From the NCBI GenBank assembly GCA_043745805.1, contig JAYTSD010000045.1, positions 80,505 through 144,504 of the forward strand: 64,000 bases of DNA. Direction: 5' to 3'. A program made the translations under genes and the position numbers. Positions 5,981 to 61,258 of the stretch are shown one piece after another. The notes under the pieces are model-generated. The model was not told the origin of the DNA. It saw only the letters and a program-made list of their open reading frames with translations, and ran no database searches. This stretch comes from Fibrobacteria bacterium. Lineage in GTDB: Bacteria > Fibrobacterota > Fibrobacteria > UBA11236. The stretch's first letter is position 1; each line of letters starts with the position of its first letter.

Positions 5981-7357
5981 TTGATTGACAAAATATCGTA
6001 TCAACCTATTGATACTTTAAAGCTCTCCGAACTCATCGCTTCGCTTAGCCATGCTTTGGATATGACTGAGGGGCAACCTGCTGGGCATTGTATTCGTAGT
6101 TGTTGGATAGGCATACACATTGGGAGAACGATCCAACTCGAAGAAAAAATATTACGTGATTTATATTACACTTTACTCTTGAAGGATTTAGGCTGTAGTA
6201 GTAATGCGGCGCGCATTTGTGAATTGTACTTGTCTGATGATTTACAATTCAAACGCAATTTTAAATTGATCAATAGTGGAAGTATTGCGCAAGTTTTGGA
6301 TTTCGTTTTCAAAAATACCGCTTCTGGTTCGCGTCTTCCTCAGCGTTTAACTTCGCTGATTAATGTTATGCGCAATGGGTCGGAAATTACGCAGGAAATG
6401 ACGCAAACTCGCTGCACGCGCGGTGCGGATATTGCTCGGCAATTACGTTTTAGCGAAGCTGTTGCGGAGGGAATTTATAATCTCGATGAACATTGGGATG
6501 GGGGAGGTCATCCGGGCCATTTGAAAAAGGAACAGATCCCATTATTCTCACGCATTGCCTTATTGTCACAAGTGATAGACGTGTTTCATTTTTCAGGCGG
6601 AAAAGAAACAGCCTTAAAAGAAATTGCCGAACGCAGTGGTAAATGGTTTGATCCGCAATTAGTGAAAGCTTTTCAACAAGTCGCAGATAAGAAAGAATTT
6701 TGGGAAGGGTTGATTGCAACTGATTTGCAAAAAACTTTGCTTTCCTTAGAACCTGGTTTACAAACGGTTTCTTTGGACGATGATTTTTTGGATGAAATTG
6801 CGGCTGCATTTGGACAGGTCGTGGATTCAAAAAGTCCTTATACAGCAGGCCATAGTGAACGTGTGGCGGTATATGCCGAATTGATTGGGCAAGAACTGGG
6901 TTTAGATAATAATTATCGGCGATGGCTAAAACGCGGCGCCTTATTGCATGACTTGGGAAAGCTAGGCGTAAGCAATACCATACTGGATAAACCTGGTAAA
7001 TTAGATGAGGAAGAATGGAAACAAATTCGTTTACATCCAGGGTTAACCGAACAAATTTTAGTGCAAATGCCAGCTTTTCGAGAATTGGCTTTAGTGGCAG
7101 GGGCACATCATGAAAAATTGGATGGTACAGGTTACCCTAAAAAAATGTGTGGTGAAGAAATCACTTTGGGTACACGCGTAATTACCACGGCGGATATATT
7201 CGATGCCATTACCGCAAATCGGCCCTATCGAGGCCCAATTCCCGTGGCTAAGGCTTTGGATATGATGGAGGCGGAAATAGGAGTTGCCATTGATGCGCAA
7301 TGCTTTGCCGCCTTAAAAACATCTTTGAATCGGCTGCCTGAAAACGCACCCAAATAA
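5981..7357 (+). CDS. HD-GYP domain protein (putative c-di-GMP phosphodiesterase) with about 270-aa N-terminal domain of unknown function
   Basis: HDLGK and HHEKLDGTGYP motifs are present. The ORF-track start is a TTG, and the true start may be a downstream ATG. Confidence 0.8.
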   Translation: MIDKISYQPIDTLKLSELIASLSHALDMTEGQPAGHCIRSCWIGIHIGRTIQLEEKILRDLYYTLLLKDLGCSSNAARICELYLSDDLQFKRNFKLINSGSIAQVLDFVFKNTASGSRLPQRLTSLINVMRNGSEITQEMTQTRCTRGADIARQLRFSEAVAEGIYNLDEHWDGGGHPGHLKKEQIPLFSRIALLSQVIDVFHFSGGKETALKEIAERSGKWFDPQLVKAFQQVADKKEFWEGLIATDLQKTLLSLEPGLQTVSLDDDFLDEIAAAFGQVVDSKSPYTAGHSERVAVYAELIGQELGLDNNYRRWLKRGALLHDLGKLGVSNTILDKPGKLDEEEWKQIRLHPGLTEQILVQMPAFRELALVAGAHHEKLDGTGYPKKMCGEEITLGTRVITTADIFDAITANRPYRGPIPVAKALDMMEAEIGVAIDAQCFAALKTSLNRLPENAPK

Positions 7358-14084: not shown

Positions 14085-16244
14085 TTACCAAATTTTCCCA
14101 GGCATAACTCCGGTGTTTCCGGCAGGTGCTGGATTTGACCCTTGACCTTCGGCAAAATATTCGCCATTGCCTGAAGAGTAACGTACACCATTATTTTTTA
14201 AAACCATGGATGTAAACGCGCATCCAGCCATACTACGTACAGGAGGATATTGAGTGAAAAGTGGGAAGTCCGATCCAAACGAATCGCCAGTGGGTATGTC
14301 TCCGCCACCGGATCCCCAACCCAAAATTACTCCTCCAGGTGTTGAAACCAAGTTGGAAAAACTGGTTGTTGTCACTAGATTGGCTTGACTTAAAAAGTAG
14401 GTCAAAAAATTTCCATACTGATAAAGATCACCATTGGCTTTTACCACAATACTGGTAGTTGCGCTACCTTCGATAGTCACCCAATCAGATTCTGTTCCAA
14501 CCTGCGTTGGAGTGGTTAGATCAACACCGCCACCACGACCCCAAGCCCAAAGTTTTCCATCTGAAGTAATGCCTAAACTTTGTTGTTGTCCTGTGGCAAT
14601 CGCGACCCATTTTTTGCCAAAGCCAATTAATATAGGAGTGGTGTGAGTATTAGTGGTTCCGTCTCCTAATTGATAGTTTCCATTTTCACCCCAGCCCCAC
14701 AATTCACCATTCGCTTTTAGGGCTAAAGTATGTCCGTAATTTGCATAAACCTTGCGCCAATTTAGATCATTATTCACTTTTACCGGAGTATAACTGAATG
14801 GAGCGGCAATACCCATTTCTCCAGCTGAATTAGTGCCCCAGGCCCATAAAGAGCCATCACTTTGAATTGCTAAACTCTGGCGTTCTCCGCCAGTTCCTTG
14901 CATCCAAGTATTTCCAGCCACATGTACAGCAGGCACATTATGGGTTTTCAAGGCATCGGTTGAACCCGTTCCTAATTGACCCGAAGTATTTGCGCCCCAC
15001 GATTCCAATTGTCCATTGCTACGGATGTCCATTGCTTGATAATCGGCACCGATAAGTACGCCGGGTTTCAAATTAGTAGCCCAAAGATCATTAGTAGATG
15101 TTTTCCAAGGGGTAACCTTGGTGTATTGTGGCGATGTAGTATTACCAATGCCTAATTGCCCAGAAGAATTGTTACCCCATGCCGATAAATTGCCATTGGA
15201 TTTAATGGCCAAGGTAAATCCTTTACCGGCTGAAATATATTGCCAATCATTATCCGTACCCAATTTATTAGGGGTTTTTTTCAAGATGGAACTATTTCCA
15301 AAACCTAAGGCACCGGAAAGATTACTGCCCCAAGCATACAAAGTTCCATTGGCTTTGATGCCCAAACTATGTTTGTCACCTGCACTAATAGCGCGCCAAA
15401 TTTCAGTGGAGATTTTAAAAGGTTTAGTTTGATTAACGGGTTGTTTATTGTCACCGACTTGTCCCGAATCATTAAGTCCCCAGCCCCACAAAGTGCCATC
15501 GTCTTTGATGGCAAGTACATGACTTCCACCGGCGGCAATGTCTATCCAATGATCTGTGCTGGGCCCGATAAGTGTTGGAATATTATAGGTACTATTGGTG
15601 TTACCTTGTCCAAGTTGAGAAAAATTGTTTTTACCCCAACTCCAAAGCGAACCATCCGCTTTCAAGGCAATAGTAAAGCCTTTACCCGCCGCAGCTTTTA
15701 TCCAGTTATTTTCAATTCCAACACGCGCAGGGAAGGATTTTGTTGCACCTGCATTGGCACCAAGTCCTAATTCTCCGTCGGCATTATTTCCCCACGCATA
15801 AAGGGCTCCATCGTATTGTATGGCTAAGGCATGATCAAATCCCGCAGTAACAAATCGCCACCAGTCACCATCCCCAATAGTTCCAGGAAAATTATGATCA
15901 AGATAACTTTGCCCTAATTGTCCTTTATTATTTTTCCCCCAACTCATTAAACCACCATAATCGGCTATGCCCACAGAAAAGGAGTCGCCCGCAGCCACTT
16001 GCACGAAAAAATTATAACCGGTATTTACAGGATTTAATCGTCGTGAATACGTGCCGTCACTGAGTTCTCCCGAAGCATTGCTGCCCCAAGAGTATAGGGA
16101 CCCATCGGGTTTAATAAGTAAAGTATGTGAAGAGCCTGCCGCCATAATGGGAAAGGGGCCGGGAAGCCTTGTATCGGCGGAAAGATTATGAATTAAAATA
16201 AGGGATAAAAATATATACCCAATTTTTCCAGCTTTTTTTTGCAT
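14085..16244 (-). CDS. RCC1/BLIP-II repeat (beta-propeller) secreted protein
   Basis: Signal peptide followed by more than 12 repeats of the ...W(G/A)xNxxGQLG... type (WGSNASGELSDG, WGKNNKGQLGQ, WGNNADGELGLG and others). Confidence 0.8.
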   Translation of the reverse strand: MQKKAGKIGYIFLSLILIHNLSADTRLPGPFPIMAAGSSHTLLIKPDGSLYSWGSNASGELSDGTYSRRLNPVNTGYNFFVQVAAGDSFSVGIADYGGLMSWGKNNKGQLGQSYLDHNFPGTIGDGDWWRFVTAGFDHALAIQYDGALYAWGNNADGELGLGANAGATKSFPARVGIENNWIKAAAGKGFTIALKADGSLWSWGKNNFSQLGQGNTNSTYNIPTLIGPSTDHWIDIAAGGSHVLAIKDDGTLWGWGLNDSGQVGDNKQPVNQTKPFKISTEIWRAISAGDKHSLGIKANGTLYAWGSNLSGALGFGNSSILKKTPNKLGTDNDWQYISAGKGFTLAIKSNGNLSAWGNNSSGQLGIGNTTSPQYTKVTPWKTSTNDLWATNLKPGVLIGADYQAMDIRSNGQLESWGANTSGQLGTGSTDALKTHNVPAVHVAGNTWMQGTGGERQSLAIQSDGSLWAWGTNSAGEMGIAAPFSYTPVKVNNDLNWRKVYANYGHTLALKANGELWGWGENGNYQLGDGTTNTHTTPILIGFGKKWVAIATGQQQSLGITSDGKLWAWGRGGGVDLTTPTQVGTESDWVTIEGSATTSIVVKANGDLYQYGNFLTYFLSQANLVTTTSFSNLVSTPGGVILGWGSGGGDIPTGDSFGSDFPLFTQYPPVRSMAGCAFTSMVLKNNGVRYSSGNGEYFAEGQGSNPAPAGNTGVMPGKIW

Positions 16245-41756: not shown

Positions 41757-42383
41757 TTATTTAATGCCGAAGCGTTTCATCTCTTCAATAGAGGATACGC
41801 AAACATTTAAATCCTGTAATAAACCATTGGAAACACCGTATATCCAGCCATGCACGGCAATCTCCTGACCGCGTCGCCAAGCTTCTTGCACAACAGTAGT
41901 GTGACAAACATTATAAACTTGTTGGGTCACATTGAGTTCGCATAAACGATCAATGCGTTTATCTTCATTTTCAATATTACGCAATTCAGTTTCATTTTGT
42001 AAAAATACTTCACGAATATTGCGTAACCAATTATCAATGAGTCCATGCGGTTCATCGGTTATTGAAGCTTTCACGCCCCCACAACCATAATGTCCACAAA
42101 CAATTATATGCTTTACTTTTAAAATATCAATAGCGTATTGCATCACCGATAAACAGTTCATGTCCGTATGTATCACGAGATTAGAAACATTGCGATGCAC
42201 AAATAATTCACCAGGCAATAAACCCACAATTTCATTGGCGGGCACGCGGCTGTCGGAACAGCCTATCCACAGGTATTCTGGGGATTGCTGGGTTTTAAGT
42301 TTTTCAAAAAAGGTTTTATCCAATTCCAATATGGATTTGGCCCAATCTTTATTTTTATCGAAAAGATGTGAAAGTGTGTCCAA
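41757..42383 (-). CDS. beta-class carbonic anhydrase
   Basis: CSDSRV and HYGCGG zinc-ligand motifs. The protein is 208 aa. Confidence 0.85.
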   Translation of the reverse strand: MDTLSHLFDKNKDWAKSILELDKTFFEKLKTQQSPEYLWIGCSDSRVPANEIVGLLPGELFVHRNVSNLVIHTDMNCLSVMQYAIDILKVKHIIVCGHYGCGGVKASITDEPHGLIDNWLRNIREVFLQNETELRNIENEDKRIDRLCELNVTQQVYNVCHTTVVQEAWRRGQEIAVHGWIYGVSNGLLQDLNVCVSSIEEMKRFGIK

Positions 42384-50327: not shown

Positions 50328-51299
50328 TTAAACTTGATTGCGAGGATGAAAAGACTTATGCGTTTCTCGCAAATAATCCTGATCCAAATGGGTATAAATT
50401 TGTGTGGTGCTAATATCGGTATGGCCCAGCATTTCTTGCACGGAACGTAAATCGGCACCGGCTTCAATTAAATGAGTGGCAAAAGTATGCCGAAAAGTAT
50501 GGGGTGAAACGGCAGTTTTAATATCGCTAGCCAGGCAAATTTGTTGTACGATTTTCCAAGCTCCCATACGGCTTAAAGGTTTGCCGCGCCAATTAAGCAG
50601 TAAAGTATTATCGCGAGCATTAAGGCTTTGTCTTTCGCTGGCTAAATATTGTTTTAAGCTTGCCGATACTTTTTGGCCTAAAGGCACAAGTCTTTGCTTA
50701 TTTCCTTTGCCTTGCACCATTACCACATCTTCATCGAAATGTAATTGATCAATTTGCAAAGTAATTGCTTCGGAAATGCGTAATCCTAATCCATACAATA
50801 ATTCAATTAAGCAAAGATTACGTGCCGGTCCAATTTTGTTTTCGCCATTATTTTGCAAGGCTTCCGGAAGTTCTGAAAGATGTGTATAAATACTTTGCAT
50901 TTCCACATGGCTCAAAGAGGAGGGCTTATAACGCTGTTGCCGTGGCGCGCGCAGGCCCATAGTGGGATCTTCAGTCAATAAATTTTCTTCGATTAAATAC
51001 TGGCAATAGCTTTTAATGCTGGAAACATAACGTGCTAGGCTTGCCGCAGCAATGCCTAAATCGGTAAGACCTTGGATGAATCCTCGTAAGGTTAAAGCGG
51101 TTAAATCTTTCACTGTGGGTTTATTATTGTTTTGCGCGAGATGGCGAAATAGTAAGAGTAAGTCGCGAGTATAGGAATCCACCGTTTCGGGGCTAAGCCT
51201 TTTTTCTAATTGCAATAAGGCTTGGTAACCGCTAAGTGACGGTATTTCGGGATCCGCAGGGGAATCTTTTTCCGTTAATCCTAATCCTTGTTTCTCCAC
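50328..51299 (-). CDS. tyrosine site-specific recombinase, XerC/XerD-like
   Basis: LLELLYGLGLRISEA box, R...HxxR...Y catalytic residues (HTFRHTFATHL...TTQIYTHL) and a length of 323 aa. Confidence 0.8.
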   Translation of the reverse strand: MEKQGLGLTEKDSPADPEIPSLSGYQALLQLEKRLSPETVDSYTRDLLLLFRHLAQNNNKPTVKDLTALTLRGFIQGLTDLGIAAASLARYVSSIKSYCQYLIEENLLTEDPTMGLRAPRQQRYKPSSLSHVEMQSIYTHLSELPEALQNNGENKIGPARNLCLIELLYGLGLRISEAITLQIDQLHFDEDVVMVQGKGNKQRLVPLGQKVSASLKQYLASERQSLNARDNTLLLNWRGKPLSRMGAWKIVQQICLASDIKTAVSPHTFRHTFATHLIEAGADLRSVQEMLGHTDISTTQIYTHLDQDYLRETHKSFHPRNQV

Positions 51300-54801: not shown

Positions 54802-56178
54802 TTAACTCTCTTCGTGAAAATCAATTTTTGCATCCGCATGCACACTGAAACTTCCCTGTCCATTGATTACGATATGTAAACCAATTTTTTGTGTTTCTAA
54901 TTTTGCTTTTAAACGATATAAGCGAATTTCAAAATTTGGTTTCTTTTGTCCGGCTAAAAGATTTTGATCTTTTTTGAAACTGCGATATTCAAATTCCTTT
55001 TTGCCTTTGTGAATCAATTCAATTAAAATATTGCGTAGTATTTTTGCAGAAACCGTTTTTAAAAAAATTTTTCCATTTAAAATGAGTTGTACTTCTTGAG
55101 GTCGATAAATAAAAACAATATTCGCTTCAAGCTGACTAATTAAATTTTGATGCTTGCGCATTAATGCTCCAGCAAAAATCTTTTCATGTTGTGCCGCATC
55201 TTCGACTAAGTGCTTGAGAAATAGGCCATTTTTTAACTGGACTTTTTGATGCTTAACACAAGTCATGTATATAGGAGCGCTGTATACACACTGGGCGTGG
55301 AGCAATATGCGCTGGCGTAAGGGGCAGAAAAAATCCTTTTCCATAAGGATTACTTGCGCTGCGGGAATTTTATATTTCGCTAAGCTTAACTCATGGCTTT
55401 TTAAAAAATCAGTGAAGGCTATTTTGTGACCGTAACATTCACCGTTTATCCATAATTGTTGACCTTTAACGCGTACGGAATGATCGGGTAAAATATTATT
55501 TATAGAACGAATATCAGATAAATATTGCAACTGTGCAAAAGGCGCCAAGCCTAAAATTTTGGGAGCTTTTAAAATTTGGGGGCCGACTACAAAATCAAAA
55601 TTAAAATTAAAGGCATGGGTAAAGGTTTTGTCGGGAATATAAACTAAATAGGATTGTACTGATTTTTTTCCCTCCACCTTTTTTACGCGGCGATGAATAT
55701 GCCCTGGCAAATATTTTTCCGTACACACCGAAATCAAATCAAAAACCATATCATGTGTATCCGTGGCATTGAAGGCCTTTTGCATCAAGGGATAAAACCA
55801 AGCTAAAATTTCTTTACCAGGAAAATAGGTAGCGGCATTATTTCGATAAAGCAGTTTTTCTATGAATTTATTTGGAGAAACCCCCTTGCTGATTAAAAAA
55901 GGTTCCAAATCATTGACCACATAATAATTCCATCGCAATGGAATTTTTCCTTCACAGTGCCAAAGAAAATGCAGCAGCTCGGCGCCAATCAATATTTTAT
56001 CGGGATAAACAATAGGGTGTGCTTCCCAAAACTCTAAAATCCATTCCCGTGGAAATAATTGCAACATAGTCACATACGAGGCGCGGTGAAAATCGTGAAT
56101 GGTTAAGGGATCCTGCATGAGATAGCGGGTTTGTTCAAGGGGCGCTTCGTTATCTATCAGCAGTGCTTCTTTGATCAT
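54802..56178 (-). CDS. regulator with novel roughly 350-aa N-terminal domain fused to a C-terminal OmpR/PhoB-type winged-helix DNA-binding domain (tandem paralog B)
   Basis: The C-terminal roughly 90 aa (...LKTVSAKILRNILIELIHKGKKEFEYRSF...NFEIRLYRLKAKLE...IGLHIVINGQGSFSV) follow the Trans_reg_C pattern (L-P-E, LL, G, the RLRKKLE-like helix and the TVRGxGYxL-like wing). The N-terminal part has conserved Cys/His (CPLRQRILLHAQCVYSAPIYMTCVKHQ). Confidence 0.55.
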   Translation of the reverse strand: MIKEALLIDNEAPLEQTRYLMQDPLTIHDFHRASYVTMLQLFPREWILEFWEAHPIVYPDKILIGAELLHFLWHCEGKIPLRWNYYVVNDLEPFLISKGVSPNKFIEKLLYRNNAATYFPGKEILAWFYPLMQKAFNATDTHDMVFDLISVCTEKYLPGHIHRRVKKVEGKKSVQSYLVYIPDKTFTHAFNFNFDFVVGPQILKAPKILGLAPFAQLQYLSDIRSINNILPDHSVRVKGQQLWINGECYGHKIAFTDFLKSHELSLAKYKIPAAQVILMEKDFFCPLRQRILLHAQCVYSAPIYMTCVKHQKVQLKNGLFLKHLVEDAAQHEKIFAGALMRKHQNLISQLEANIVFIYRPQEVQLILNGKIFLKTVSAKILRNILIELIHKGKKEFEYRSFKKDQNLLAGQKKPNFEIRLYRLKAKLETQKIGLHIVINGQGSFSVHADAKIDFHEES

Positions 56179-56192
56179 AGGAGTTGCTTTCC

Positions 56193-57545
56193 TTAACCTA
56201 TTTCGCGGAAATCGATTTTCCGATCACAGATTAAAGTAAAAGTTCCGCGTCCATTTTTCACTATACTTAGGCCTAATTTTTCTTGGTCGAGTTTTTCCAT
56301 TAGGCGATAAAAACGGATTTCAAAATTGGAATTTTTTTGGTGGTTGGATATTTCAAAATCGGCTTTGAACTCTTTATACTCAAATTCAGTTTTACCCTCG
56401 CGAGTATAGGCGAGAAGAATATCCTTTAAAATTTTGGCGGGGGTATTTTTTACAAAATGTTTTCCATTGAGGGATAAACTTTGATCTTGAGCATGATAGA
56501 ACGCACGTATTTTATTTTCTAATTGCTTTACTAATTCCCCATGTTTTTTTTCCAATTCACTTTTGGAAAAGGATTTTTCTAAATCGGCATCTTCAACCAA
56601 ATGTTGTAAGAAACTGATTTTTTTCTTTTGCAACTTATGATGTTGCATGCAAATCATGTATAGCGGCGCACCATAAGCGCAATTGGCATAGAGGACAATG
56701 CGTTTGCGGAGTGGACAATAATAATCTTTGTGCAAATGAAATACTTCGGCATCGGGCGCATCAATTTTGCCTAAATCAATATCCAATTTTTTCAATAAAG
56801 CATAAAAAGTGGTTTTTTTGCCAATCCAATCCCCTTCGACATAGCAATCCGAGCCTTTATATTCGGCCTTTCCGGTCCATAGTACATCGTCTACGGTGCG
56901 TGTATCGCAAATATATTCAACGTTATTAAAAGCAGGCAAAGAAAGAATCTTGGAACTGGATTTGAATTGTTCTCCGGCCACAAAATCGAAATTAAATTTT
57001 ACCATATTGCTAAAATTTTTATCGCTACAATAAACCAAATAAGAATGTACCACATTTTCTTTTTCAACTTTTTTGACACGGCGACTTATATGTTGCGGTA
57101 ATAATTTCGAGGTAAAAATATCAATCAGTTTATAAGCCATATCCCAAATATCATAGGCATTAAATACTTTGCCCATAAGCGGATAAAACCAAGACAGTAT
57201 AGTTATACCTGGGATATACGTAGCTTGATTGTTACGGAAGAGAATTTTTTTAATGAAGCTATTTCCGTAAATACCTTTGGAAATTAAAAAGGGTTCAATA
57301 GCGTCACCCGTGGTATAATCCCAAGTGACAGGGACTTTATTATTCGCTTGCCATAAATGCTTAACTAATTCATCATCCGCAATGAGGTGTGTGCCCTCTT
57401 GAATAGGATATGCAGACCAAAACTCTTCCAGCCAATCCAATGGAAACTCAGCCAGCATGGTAAGATAAACGGAGCGTTGAAAATCATTAGTGGTTTTTAG
57501 CTTTTTATAAGCATTAGTCCATTTATTAATGAGCTGTTGTCCCAA
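56193..57545 (-). CDS. regulator with novel N-terminal domain fused to a C-terminal OmpR/PhoB-type winged-helix domain (tandem paralog A)
   Basis: This is a full-length paralog of 54802..56178 (shared blocks PFLISKG, SYLVY, FNFDFV, DYYCPLRKRIVLYANCAYGAPLYMICMQHH). The C-terminal ...NFEIRFYRLMEKLD...LGLSIVKNGRGTFTL matches the OmpR-type wHTH. Confidence 0.55.
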   Translation of the reverse strand: MGQQLINKWTNAYKKLKTTNDFQRSVYLTMLAEFPLDWLEEFWSAYPIQEGTHLIADDELVKHLWQANNKVPVTWDYTTGDAIEPFLISKGIYGNSFIKKILFRNNQATYIPGITILSWFYPLMGKVFNAYDIWDMAYKLIDIFTSKLLPQHISRRVKKVEKENVVHSYLVYCSDKNFSNMVKFNFDFVAGEQFKSSSKILSLPAFNNVEYICDTRTVDDVLWTGKAEYKGSDCYVEGDWIGKKTTFYALLKKLDIDLGKIDAPDAEVFHLHKDYYCPLRKRIVLYANCAYGAPLYMICMQHHKLQKKKISFLQHLVEDADLEKSFSKSELEKKHGELVKQLENKIRAFYHAQDQSLSLNGKHFVKNTPAKILKDILLAYTREGKTEFEYKEFKADFEISNHQKNSNFEIRFYRLMEKLDQEKLGLSIVKNGRGTFTLICDRKIDFREIG

Positions 57546-58380: not shown

Positions 58381-59556
58381 TTAAATCATTAAACTTTCAA
58401 TTTTTAATTCCTTAATAGCTTCTGCGGTAACGATAGCCGTTTTTATAATAGCTTCACGAGTAATTTCGGCGTGAACTGAAAAACGAGCAAAACTTTTATC
58501 ACGCGCTGAAGCTGGAGGAGCAAATACTGAAAATAAAATTCCTTTTTCTTTCATTTTTCCATAAAGGGCGCTAGCTGTATAGGGGCCTTTAAAAAATACG
58601 GATACGATTTGACAATTACTTGGACCAGTGGGAATACCACGTTGATTCAACTCATCCCTTAAAAGTTGAGCCATATCCATGCAATGCTGCGCTCTTTGCG
58701 GTTCCCGTAAAATAACATTCAAAGCGGCTCTGTGACCCGCAGAGTTTGGTTCAGAAGGTGAAGAACTAAAAATAATAGAGTGACAACGAAATCTTAAAAA
58801 ACGAATGGCTTGTAGGCTTGCTGCGATAAAGCCTCCATTGCCGCCAATAGCTTTGGACAAGCTAACCGTTCGAAAAGGTACTCTATCTTGTAACCCTAAT
58901 GAAACGGCTAAACCACCGCCATTTTCTCCAATCATTCCAAAGCTATGGGCTTCATCTAGTACCAAGGCGCAGTTATACTTTTCACATAAAGCAATGTAGG
59001 TGGGAAGATCAGCAACTGATCCATCAGTGCTATAATAAGCATCGATGCAAACAATTCCCGTTCCATCTTTTTTGATTCTTTTTTCCAAATATTCCGGATC
59101 ATTATGTTTGATTAAAACAGGTCTTCCTGAAGAAAGTTTCGCACCGGACCATAATGACGCATGCGCTTGATGATCAATGTAAATAGGCAAATCAGGTGTA
59201 GCTATTGCTTCTAATAAACCGACATTAGCGCACCAACCAGCAGTAGTTACGATTACGTCTTCGCTTTTGAGGCTTTTTTTTAATACTTCCCCAAATTTTC
59301 CATGTTCACCGGTGTCGGCTCCAAAAACCAATGAGGCTACGCTACCTGTGCCAATATTGTTATTCGCTTCATCCTTGGCTGCTATTACCTCGGGATGGCG
59401 AGACAAGCGCAAATAATCATTTTGATGTAATTCAATATAGGCTTTTGAATCTCCAGGTTGATCGAATGGATTCGGTTGATGGCCATCCATAAAATTCAAC
59501 CAGTCCTCATAATGTTTGGTTAACCATGGCGTTGTATCTAAATCATCGGAAAGCAT
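58381..59556 (-). CDS. CqsA/LqsA-family alpha-hydroxyketone autoinducer synthase (PLP-dependent alpha-oxoamine synthase)
   Basis: Block-by-block similarity to Vibrio CqsA as I recall it: LHQNDYLRLSRHP vs LQSNDYLALANHP; GWCANVGLL...IYIDHQAHASLWSGA vs GWNANVGLL...VYIDFFAHMSLWEGA; IVCIDAYYSTDG...CALVLDEAHSFG...NGGGL vs IIVVDSIYSTLG...CALLVDESHSLG...NGAGL; and the PLP lysine in SLSKA. The 391-aa length matches CqsA at about 389 aa. Confidence 0.8.
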   Translation of the reverse strand: MLSDDLDTTPWLTKHYEDWLNFMDGHQPNPFDQPGDSKAYIELHQNDYLRLSRHPEVIAAKDEANNNIGTGSVASLVFGADTGEHGKFGEVLKKSLKSEDVIVTTAGWCANVGLLEAIATPDLPIYIDHQAHASLWSGAKLSSGRPVLIKHNDPEYLEKRIKKDGTGIVCIDAYYSTDGSVADLPTYIALCEKYNCALVLDEAHSFGMIGENGGGLAVSLGLQDRVPFRTVSLSKAIGGNGGFIAASLQAIRFLRFRCHSIIFSSSPSEPNSAGHRAALNVILREPQRAQHCMDMAQLLRDELNQRGIPTGPSNCQIVSVFFKGPYTASALYGKMKEKGILFSVFAPPASARDKSFARFSVHAEITREAIIKTAIVTAEAIKELKIESLMI

Positions 59557-59698
59557 GGAACGGTCCTTTTATTATCTGTATAAATGGTTTGGATTTTGTG
59601 GTTTTTTGTGTATGTGAATGAATGTCTTGCTCAAATATGCTTCCGGGCCTTAATATTGCATTTGAAGCTAGAATTTTTGGCTTTTGAGGAAAAGGTTG

Positions 59699-61258
59699 AT
59701 GCTGAGAAAATTCTTTTCGAAGGATTTTTGGAATGGCCGTTCGGAATACCACCGAATGCTTTTTAATACTGACTATTCCTTTCAAAAACGTTTTATGATG
59801 GTACTGGTATATATAGGCGCACCAGCCAATATATTTTTTCATTACTATGAACAAGATCAAGGTTATCAAGATTCTACCATTGGACGTTATGCTATTTCTC
59901 TGCTATTAGTTACACTAGTTTTCCTACCGAAGATTATCAAGCAAAATAAATGGCAAATATCGTACTGGGAACTCACACTTTTCATTTTTTTCCCATGTAT
60001 GAACACCGCCTTCATGCTGATGAATCATGTTAATCAGTATTGGTTTTCCACCTTTATTCTGGATATGGTATTTTTGGGCATTTTTACCAAATGGTATATG
60101 ATCCCTTTCCATTACATTTTTGGTAGTGCGGCAATAACATGGTGGTACTTTCACAATACAGGATATGATGCGAAATTATTTCAGGCCAATTTAAATGCGC
60201 ATGTGGCAGCCTTTCTAGGAACATGCGTTGCATCGGGAGTCGTTTTAACTATTGAATATGTTAATAAAAAATCTACTGAAGCTAAATTAGCGCTATCTAA
60301 AGCGGAACATGATAGGCTCAGAACCTTAGAGCTACAAAAATCAAATGAAGAATTAAAAAAACGTGAGGAAATCATTAAGGTGTATGTGCGCCCATCCTTG
60401 TATGAAGAGTTAGCGGCGGGACATGACCCTCTCAAATTTCAACCTATTATGCTGCCTAAGGCGATTATGTTTTGCGACATTCGCGACTTCACTTATTTGA
60501 CGGAAATTCTTACCCCTTACGAAAAACAAACTTTTCTCAATCAATATTTCACTTTGATGAATCATGCCATTGTCAATAATGAAGGCGAAGTAGATAAAAT
60601 TGTGGGCGATTGTATTATGGGTCTTTTTCCTAATGGCCGCGCAGCCGTACATGCCGCATTGGCCATGCGTAAGGCCTTGCACACATTTAATAATATGATG
60701 TACAACAGTGGTCGTCGAAAAATCCCTAATGGTATTGGCATAGCCAAGGGCGAAGTGATGTTAGGCAATTTCGGATCTAATGAAAAACTAGATCGCACGG
60801 TGATTGGTGAAGCGGTGAATATAGCTTCACGCTTGGAATCTAAAACCAAAATGTATGGTGTGGAAATTGTGGTGACTCAGGATGTGGTCGATGAAATGCA
60901 GGGCTATCCCTATATGCGTTGGATTGACAATGCTAAGGTAAAAGGTTCGAGCCGACCTTTGCAGCTTTATGAAATTTATGGACATCAACCAGATGAAGTG
61001 ATTGCCTATAAAGAAAAGACTAAAGTCATATTCGAAAAGGCTTTGACTATTTATTTCAATAAAGGTTTTAAAGATGCTTTACGCATGTTTCAATCTATGT
61101 TATCCGAGGTTCCACCGCATAAATACAAAGCGAATGCACCCATGGATAATATTCTCAGCTATTATATTGAGCATTGCCGAACTTGGGTGAATGACTCCGC
61201 AGGGGCTTGGGACTTGCGGAATAAATGGGATGGCATTCATGAGTTTAAAGAAAAGTGA
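59699..61258 (+). CDS. membrane-anchored class III nucleotidyl (adenylate-type) cyclase: 6-TM N-terminal domain, coiled-coil linker and catalytic domain
   Basis: Six hydrophobic helices lie in the first roughly 190 aa, then KLALSKAEHDRLRTLELQKSNEELKKRE, then the CHD motifs FCDIRDFT, KIVGDCIMG and GEAVNIASRLES. The start was placed at the first ATG, which has an AGGAAAAGG RBS; the ORF-track TTG start at 59684 is in the same frame. The substrate-position residues look Lys/Thr, which is adenylate-cyclase-like. Confidence 0.8.
   Translation: MLRKFFSKDFWNGRSEYHRMLFNTDYSFQKRFMMVLVYIGAPANIFFHYYEQDQGYQDSTIGRYAISLLLVTLVFLPKIIKQNKWQISYWELTLFIFFPCMNTAFMLMNHVNQYWFSTFILDMVFLGIFTKWYMIPFHYIFGSAAITWWYFHNTGYDAKLFQANLNAHVAAFLGTCVASGVVLTIEYVNKKSTEAKLALSKAEHDRLRTLELQKSNEELKKREEIIKVYVRPSLYEELAAGHDPLKFQPIMLPKAIMFCDIRDFTYLTEILTPYEKQTFLNQYFTLMNHAIVNNEGEVDKIVGDCIMGLFPNGRAAVHAALAMRKALHTFNNMMYNSGRRKIPNGIGIAKGEVMLGNFGSNEKLDRTVIGEAVNIASRLESKTKMYGVEIVVTQDVVDEMQGYPYMRWIDNAKVKGSSRPLQLYEIYGHQPDEVIAYKEKTKVIFEKALTIYFNKGFKDALRMFQSMLSEVPPHKYKANAPMDNILSYYIEHCRTWVNDSAGAWDLRNKWDGIHEFKEK

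Follow-up and report, generated by a model that had tools for sequence, protein, structure and literature searches.

In the CAI-1 system of Vibrio the receptor CqsS is a six-transmembrane (6TM) protein with minimal loops, whose gene stands beside that of the pyridoxal phosphate (PLP)-dependent synthase CqsA and whose HisKA-HATPase-REC domains feed a phosphorelay (CqsS/LuxU/LuxO). In V. cholerae CqsS the residues W104 and S107 set the head-group specificity, and transmembrane helices (TM) 1-3 hold motifs which are essential for ligand binding (PMC3376566). When CqsS(1-181) was grafted onto Rv1625c or onto human AC2, cyclases regulated by CAI-1 were obtained (PMC4821796; bioRxiv 10.1101/694877). 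Whether the six-helix domains of adenylate cyclases function as receptors, and for what ligand, has been an open question for decades. A clustering published by the Schultz laboratory in 2016 set CqsS-type modules apart from cyclase anchors, the two groups being joined by local matches only, and according to the authors of the chimeras the ligands of native 6TM cyclase anchors were not predictable (PMC4821796). A review of 2025 calls the receptor role of cyclase membrane domains a 'signal transduction blind spot' and cites as proof of concept the synthetic chimeras only (PMC12414865). Here we describe a gene of a Fibrobacteria bacterium, at positions 59699-61258 of a stretch of 64,000 nucleotides of contig JAYTSD010000045.1 (the window), whose protein is, with high confidence, an adenylate cyclase of class IIIb that has a 6TM sensor domain homologous to the receptor domain of CqsS. 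We consider it probable that the protein functions as a receptor-cyclase, with an acyl-aminoketone or hydroxyketone as its signal and cAMP as the direct output.

The 6TM class III cyclase at 59699-61258, which an earlier note had read from the letters of the window, is confirmed. Its open reading frame (ORF) lies on the + strand, starts at 59684 (TTG) or 59699 (ATG) and ends at 61258, with the stop codon at 61256-61258. The public gene call of an identical protein (P0001) uses the ATG at 59699, giving 519 aa, and the sequence GAGGA is found about 9 nt 5' of this ATG. Residues of the cyclase are numbered on the 519-aa form throughout. The three cyclase motifs FCDIRDFT, IVGDCIMG and RTVIGEAVN are all found in the ORF, and the catalytic domain matches Pfam PF00211 (E 4e-15; 56.2 bits, the cutoff being 21.9; match to residues 260-421 in the 524-aa form). 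The six canonical class III residues are present, namely the metal-binding D260 and D304, the substrate residues K300 and T367 and the transition-state residues N374 and R378, with K300 placed four residues before D304 and T367 seven before N374. None of the six varies among 33 family members. The gene is real and conserved and not a chance ORF. The source DNA is low in GC (~39%). More than 1,000 relatives exist in the database, the best 120 being 40-55% identical over the full length; all those of the 120 that bear names are metagenome-assembled genomes of Fibrobacterota or Fibrobacteria, often with several paralogs on one contig.

Class IIIb cyclases, as defined by Linder & Schultz, have Lys and Thr, and not Asp or Glu/Cys, at the two substrate-specifying positions. 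The HMMER alignment puts D260/K300/D304/T367/N374/R378 on D156/K196/D200/T266/N273/R277 of OaPAC, in which D156, D200 and N273 are residues of the metal/ATP site (PMC11533990), and in a four-way MAFFT alignment T367 shares its column with the Asp of two class IIIa cyclases (YDVWGD). Neither Glu nor Cys stands at the specificity positions in the alignments with OaPAC and the class IIIa enzymes. The nearest solved relatives in a search of PDB sequences were OaPAC (114 bits, E 7e-32), bPAC (89 bits), P. aeruginosa CyaB (79 bits) and Spirulina CyaC (58 bits), all of them experimentally characterised class IIIb adenylate cyclases, whereas the class IIIa enzyme Rv1625c/Cya scored 32 bits. The comparison with Rv1625c, CyaB and CyaC, by which the earlier note had proposed to check itself, thus upholds its Lys/Thr assignment as well as its metal-binding Asp residues in FCDIRDFT and IVGDCIMG. 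Its preference for cAMP over cGMP is likewise supported at the level of sequence: from the K/T pair, the lack of Glu or Cys and the close relation to class IIIb adenylate cyclases one would expect cAMP. The protein resembles CyaB, OaPAC/bPAC and CyaC in its catalytic domain, handle helices, K/T residues and predicted homodimeric two-site architecture, but the sensors of those enzymes are MASE2, BLUF or GAF/PAS/REC domains and none has a CqsS-type TM domain.

The linker EELKKREEIIKVYVRPSLYEEL, N-terminal of the catalytic domain, aligns with the 'handle' helices of OaPAC (residues ~219-250 on the handle region 115-146) and is among the best conserved segments of the family, with the motif EELKKREE(L/I)I..(F/Y)VRPSL.EE(I/L). 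Its position corresponds to that of the cyclase-transducing element (CTE), which the Schultz laboratory found to be indispensable for signal transfer (Ziegler et al. 2017, cited in bioRxiv 10.1101/694877). At the other end of the protein, a C-terminal extension of ~87 residues is conserved as strongly as the catalytic core (for example EKALTIYF.KGF.DA, with W510, H514 and F516 invariant); a Pfam search of it gave no significant match and no family assignment. By tblastn, more distant cyclases of three of the related loci (L022, L023 and L049) match up to query residues 486-503, and part of the extension seems to be common to them.

A Kyte-Doolittle scan of the membrane domain gives six hydrophobic stretches, all within residues ~36-192. 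An AlphaFold2 model of residues 1-217 (29-sequence alignment, mean pLDDT 94.5) places helices at 33-53, 60-75, 84-108, 113-129, 132-154 and 158-216, linked by loops of 2-8 residues, and TM6 continues as one helix to residue 216, into the cytoplasm. The claim of six helices without large periplasmic loops is therefore borne out by hydropathy and by the model. The N-terminus is short, basic and cytoplasmic, and together with the cytoplasmic catalytic domain it fits an N-in/C-in topology.

By sequence comparison this domain is homologous to the CqsS receptor domain over TM1-TM5. A set of genuine CqsS proteins was obtained by rebuilding V. cholerae CqsA from a PDB alignment, going from it to named CAI-1 synthases and reading their loci, which belong to Vibrio (two species), Photobacterium and Celerinatantimonas; the four CqsS receptor domains form profile A3 and the TM domain of the cyclase family forms profile A2. 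In hmmsearch A2 matched the two Vibrio CqsS at 47.5 and 35.8 bits, the first corresponding to about E 1e-7 when rescaled to a library of 1.8 billion proteins. The hhalign comparison of A2 with A3 gave a probability of 97.6% and E 3.4e-12 over 134 columns spanning TM1-TM5. With either profile reversed, or in 20 column shuffles, the score was 9.5-16 against 80 for the real pair and the probability at most 0.5%, so hydrophobic composition is not the cause of the match. Reciprocally, a hidden Markov model (HMM) of the four CqsS domains, run against a set of 1,586 ORFs (the window together with 36 loci), retrieved beyond CqsS only this TM family, the first unrelated ORF appearing at E 0.31. The A2 profile had no match among PDB sequences at E up to 10, and there was no CqsS structure among the PDB hits of a structural search with the TM domain. 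What had been offered as an analogy ('as in CqsS') has turned out to be homology, accompanied by linkage to a CqsA-like synthase gene.

The positions that are invariant in both families pair Y26, Y56, R63, P99, N109 and W115 of the cyclase with Y12, Y45, R51, P88, N98 and W104 of CqsS; most members have Trp at the W115 position. Cyclase T118, which is Ser in most members, falls on S107. Within the cyclase family the TM residues Y26, P99, N109, G127 and K131 are invariant, a conservation that goes well beyond hydrophobicity.

Identification of the protein as a CqsS ortholog was rejected, as Pfam finds no HisKA-HATPase_c-REC output and a cyclase instead; it is a different protein that shares the receptor domain of CqsS, and its output involves no phosphorelay. 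Its order of CqsS-type 6TM domain, helical CTE and class III dimer is that of the synthetic CqsS-Rv1625c and CqsS-hAC2 (Beltz et al. 2016; Seth et al. 2020), but those were engineered, are class IIIa and respond directly to CAI-1, whereas the present cyclase is natural and class IIIb. It also differs from Rv1625c/Cya and the mammalian membrane adenylyl cyclases, which are class IIIa (K/D) and whose TM domains have no detectable sequence similarity to the one found here, with likeness at the level of the fold only. A literature search found no description of a native CqsS-type receptor-cyclase fusion or of the arrangement of receiver-domain (REC) protein, synthase and cyclase described below, though an earlier account elsewhere is possible.

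An exhaustive HMMER search with the TM profile gave 410 representatives. In the matches that were sampled the domain is an N-terminal module fused to hybrid histidine kinases (the architecture of CqsS), to PAS-histidine kinases, to SpoIIE/PP2C phosphatases and to short cyclases, and such use of one TM module with several outputs is typical of a sensor domain. For the histidine-kinase relatives there was no CqsS or LqsS receptor model among the first 25 NCBIfam matches listed for each. One of the short cyclases (P0150, locus L036, 6001-7221) is class IIIa with a K/D pair and has AC9, AC8, AC5 and Cya as its best PDB matches; it is in effect a natural version of the CqsS-Rv1625c chimera. Its gene is transcribed divergently from an operon whose products are an outer-membrane efflux protein, an ABC exporter with cyclic nucleotide (cNMP)-binding and peptidase C39 domains and an AprE/HlyD-like protein, a neighbourhood that hints at cAMP-gated peptide export. 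In another locus (L033, 3551-5734) the protein P0123 combines the CqsS-like TM domain with PAS-HisKA-HATPase-REC, and its gene is divergent from genes for a FabA/ApeI-like dehydratase, a ketoacyl synthase and a ketoreductase; this may be another pairing of a lipid-type synthase with a sensor.

Next to the cyclase gene of the window, and transcribed divergently from it, is a gene (58381-59556) for an alpha-oxoamine synthase. Its best NCBIfam model is NF005526, alpha-hydroxyketone autoinducer synthase (289.8 bits, with BioF at 229 and serine palmitoyltransferase (SPT) at 208), and its best PDB match is V. cholerae CqsA (2wk8; E 2e-50, 175 bits, with SPT at 145 and BioF at 135). Aligned with V. 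cholerae CqsA it shows 32% identity, and the two PLP lysines coincide (SLSK vs SLAK). In the 142-bp intergenic region neither a promoter and terminator scan nor a search for inverted repeats yielded a signal above background.

The arrangement was compared in 22 Fibrobacterota genome loci encoding a family member and in 8 metagenome loci with enough upstream sequence. An alpha-oxoamine synthase gene is immediately upstream and divergent in half of the genome loci (11 of 22) and within 3 kb in one more, and five of the 8 informative metagenome loci have the same arrangement. The module of REC protein, synthase and divergent cyclase is present in 16 of the 30 informative related loci, all of them Fibrobacterota or metagenomes. 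As such synthases are rare in a genome, this linkage is far beyond chance. The REC protein always adjoins the synthase, and in most such loci a second REC paralog is found convergent behind the cyclase. Four loci have a second cyclase paralog next, which belongs to a distinct clade (L004, 12762-14264; L005, 5352-6899; L010, 11858-13360; L037, 5522-7030), so that the full cassette reads REC, synthase, divergent cyclase A, convergent REC, cyclase B.

In the window the REC protein beside the synthase (RR-a) has a receiver domain of canonical type that retains the DD, D, T and K residues. It is preceded by a four-helix domain of ~90 aa with the helix spacing of an acyl carrier protein (ACP) and a GxD motif, in which Gln stands where the phosphopantetheine Ser would be. 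Both small REC proteins of the window, RR-a and its RR-b paralog, follow this plan of an N-terminal four-helix domain and a receiver, with Gln or a hydrophobic residue at the Ser position, and the ~292 database homologs of their family all appear to lie in the lineage that bears the cyclase. By its gene layout (synthase, stand-alone receiver-domain protein, 6TM sensor) the module resembles LqsA-LqsR-(HdeD)-LqsS of Legionella. However, LqsS is a histidine kinase and LqsR has an N-terminal receiver followed by an unrelated C-terminal domain, whereas here the REC domain is C-terminal to the ACP-like domain. A further difference, from Vibrio, is that the synthase and cyclase genes are divergent whereas those of Vibrio are convergent or adjacent.

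These features suggest a mechanism in which a homodimeric class IIIb adenylate cyclase would carry, as its N-terminal six-helix bundle, a CqsS-type intramembrane receptor domain. The CqsA-like PLP enzyme would condense an acyl thioester with an amino acid-type substrate to give a small lipophilic alpha-aminoketone or alpha-hydroxyketone. This product would partition into the membrane and bind the TM bundle at the conserved TM3/TM4 region that includes N109, W115 and S/T118. The conformational change would then pass through TM6, the coiled-coil helix and the handle/CTE segment to the dimeric catalytic domains and alter the rate at which ATP is converted to cAMP. Information on cell density or on a lipid signal would in this way be written directly into cAMP, in contrast to the phosphorelay of CqsS/LuxU/LuxO. 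Modulation of the synthase or the cyclase is the probable role of the small REC proteins. We infer every step from the ligand onward, including the binding site, the ligand itself, the product and the sign of regulation. CAI-1 stimulated CqsS-Rv1625c and inhibited CqsS-hAC2 (PMC4821796; PMC12414865; bioRxiv 10.1101/694877), and with such opposite effects on two chimeras the sign is not predictable for this cyclase. On balance we lean towards the product of the neighbouring synthase as the ligand of the cyclase.

Several observations weigh against a receptor-cyclase for a CAI-1-like signal. The window protein by itself matches the CqsS HMM weakly (E 1.8e-3), so that homology to CqsS is firm for the family and modest for the single member, and TM6, which in CqsS holds the gatekeeper and tail-length residues F160, F162, F166 and C170, is outside the profile-profile alignment. 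The synthase is below the equivalog cutoff of NF005526 (289.8 vs 428 bits). Three types of alpha-oxoamine synthase occupy the divergent slot among the loci examined for this (L001-L008, L010, L019, L021, L024, L037, L040-L042 and L046): CqsA-like in the window, L010, L046 and L006, a third clade in L003, L021 and L037, and SPT-like in most loci. This weakens a strict CAI-1-like reading, and as the tree of TM domains is not sorted by synthase type, strict co-evolution of ligand and receptor is not seen. A synthase neighbour is absent from about half of the paralogous cyclases, and also from four relatives of the TM domain whose loci were inspected, namely three histidine kinases and one class IIIa cyclase. 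Finally, a scan of ~35 ORFs of the window, with ~17 ORFs of at least 150 aa outside it, turned up neither a cNMP-binding nor a CRP protein. As a separate observation, L008 contains a CqsA-like fragment in one operon with its SPT-like gene.

Another reading, which we regard as unlikely, is that the synthase makes a membrane lipid precursor (a sphingoid or aminolipid-type base) and that the cyclase, with this precursor as its ligand, monitors membrane-lipid status in a homeostatic feedback. In most related loci the synthase is indeed closest to bacterial SPT (258 bits to the Sphingobacterium enzyme), but that of the window is closest to CqsA. The swapping of synthase types beside closely related receptors would suit a lipid sensor, as would the one histidine-kinase relative with the same TM domain that adjoins the FabA, ketoacyl synthase and ketoreductase genes; the synthase, however, is in every case part of a signalling cassette whose other members are REC proteins and cyclases, and no further lipid-pathway genes accompany it. 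Moreover, the presence of several cassettes and paralogs in one genome is more in keeping with signalling than with the making of lipid in bulk, and the homolog CqsS senses a secreted signal (PMC3376566).

Somewhat less likely again, the TM domain may sense an unrelated lipophilic or environmental ligand, the adjacency of the synthase reflecting co-regulation, for example control of synthase expression by cAMP. This would account for the half of the cyclase paralogs, and the relatives with other outputs, that are without a synthase neighbour, and also for the difference of TM6 from that of CqsS. It leaves unexplained that the divergent synthase-receptor arrangement is kept across cyclases only 42-55% identical and across three synthase types, that it mirrors the adjacency of cqsA and cqsS in Vibrio, and that the CqsS head-group residues are conserved.

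That the six helices are a membrane anchor or dimerisation device only, with regulation left to the catalytic or C-terminal domains (by bicarbonate/CO2) or to the REC proteins, appears improbable. The invariance of the five TM residues beyond hydrophobicity, the homology of the domain to a proven ligand-binding domain and its reuse with several outputs all argue for more than an anchor, even though in class IIIb cyclases like the soluble adenylyl cyclase a Thr at this substrate position is reported to predict regulation by bicarbonate (PMC3383692) and both the conserved C-terminal extension and the dedicated REC proteins would suit regulation from elsewhere. A guanylate or pyrimidine cyclase, such as an anti-phage enzyme of Pycsar type, is very improbable, because the match of the PADLOC PycC models to the catalytic domain (up to 65 bits) is general class III similarity (OaPAC reaches 114 bits), the K/T pair without Glu or Cys fits adenylate cyclases and the family is multi-copy with conserved signalling neighbours. 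The identification as a Pycsar PycC was rejected, the PycC match being generic and no gene for a cNMP-activated effector (PycTM or PycTIR) being found among the neighbours.

The features of the window are collected in Table 1. The neighbours of the cyclase gene are those of the synthase and the REC protein, proteins without assignment, and SthA. A REC paralog with 44% identity to RR-a groups with the RR-b sequences of related loci, with which it has an insertion in common. It is ~9.5 kb away from the usual place of RR-b, which in related loci is convergent and directly after the cyclase. Its displacement to the side of an integrase gene suggests a rearrangement, and the XerC/D-type gene may mark the event that parted RR-b from the cyclase. 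The tandem paralogs downstream of RR-a have homologs near the module in L001, L003 and L042 and may belong to it; they had no Pfam, PDB or PADLOC match, and by eye their C-terminal ~60 residues resemble a winged helix of OmpR type. The beta-carbonic anhydrase of the window would be relevant only if the class IIIb cyclase responds to bicarbonate, and no link between the two has been established.

Table 1. Domains of the cyclase and other features of the 64,000-nucleotide window
Feature	Position	Strand	Basis or remark
Receptor (6TM) domain of the cyclase, residues 1-192	59699..60274	+	Hydropathy, AlphaFold2 model, CqsS homology over TM1-TM5
TM6 exit helix, coiled-coil and 'handle'/CTE-like linker, residues 193-254	60275..60460	+	AlphaFold2 model, OaPAC alignment, family conservation
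Class IIIb adenylate cyclase catalytic domain, residues 255-432	60461..60994	+	PF00211, PDB matches, residue alignment
C-terminal helical extension (~87 residues) and stop codon	60995..61258	+	Family conservation
Alpha-oxoamine synthase, CqsA/LqsA type, PLP-dependent, candidate signal synthase	58381..59556	-	NCBIfam, PDB, alignment
REC-domain protein RR-a, 221 aa	57672..58337	-	Directly downstream of synthase; conserved module member
REC paralog of RR-b type, 233 aa	49528..50229	-	tblastn, 44% identity to RR-a; Pfam
XerC/D-type tyrosine recombinase (integrase)	50328-51299	-	Directly adjoins displaced RR-b
Tandem paralogs, 450 and 458 aa, 47% identical	54802-56178 and 56193-57545	-	Downstream of REC gene
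Beta-carbonic anhydrase	41757-42383	-	Window gene
HD_5 (HD-GYP-like) domain protein	5981-7357	+	Window gene
Large RCC1-repeat protein	14085-16244	-	Window gene

The locus thus unites, in a natural protein, a receptor domain and an enzyme that are each known, and beside it stands a synthase that is a plausible partner. The fusion built synthetically in the chimeras seems to have arisen here in nature, with the gene for the synthase of the likely ligand adjacent to it. This opens the receptor question to a direct test with two genes, and the synthase-cyclase pair could demonstrate gating of a natural membrane cyclase by a ligand. If the receptor-cyclase reading is true, the protein would be the first among natural 6TM adenylate cyclases for which a ligand of the membrane domain can be identified, and it would provide an evolutionary bridge between quorum-sensing receptors and the membrane 'anchors' of cyclases. 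We put forward tentatively, as quite possible and short of probable, that Fibrobacterota have a class of circuits in which the products of three types of alpha-oxoamine synthase are read by paralogous CqsS-type receptor-adenylate cyclases and converted to cAMP without a phosphorelay. Signalling of the alpha-hydroxyketone type would then extend beyond the Proteobacteria to the Fibrobacterota, with a second messenger as output. The CqsS-like sensor domain itself is a module that is reused with kinase, phosphatase and cyclase outputs.

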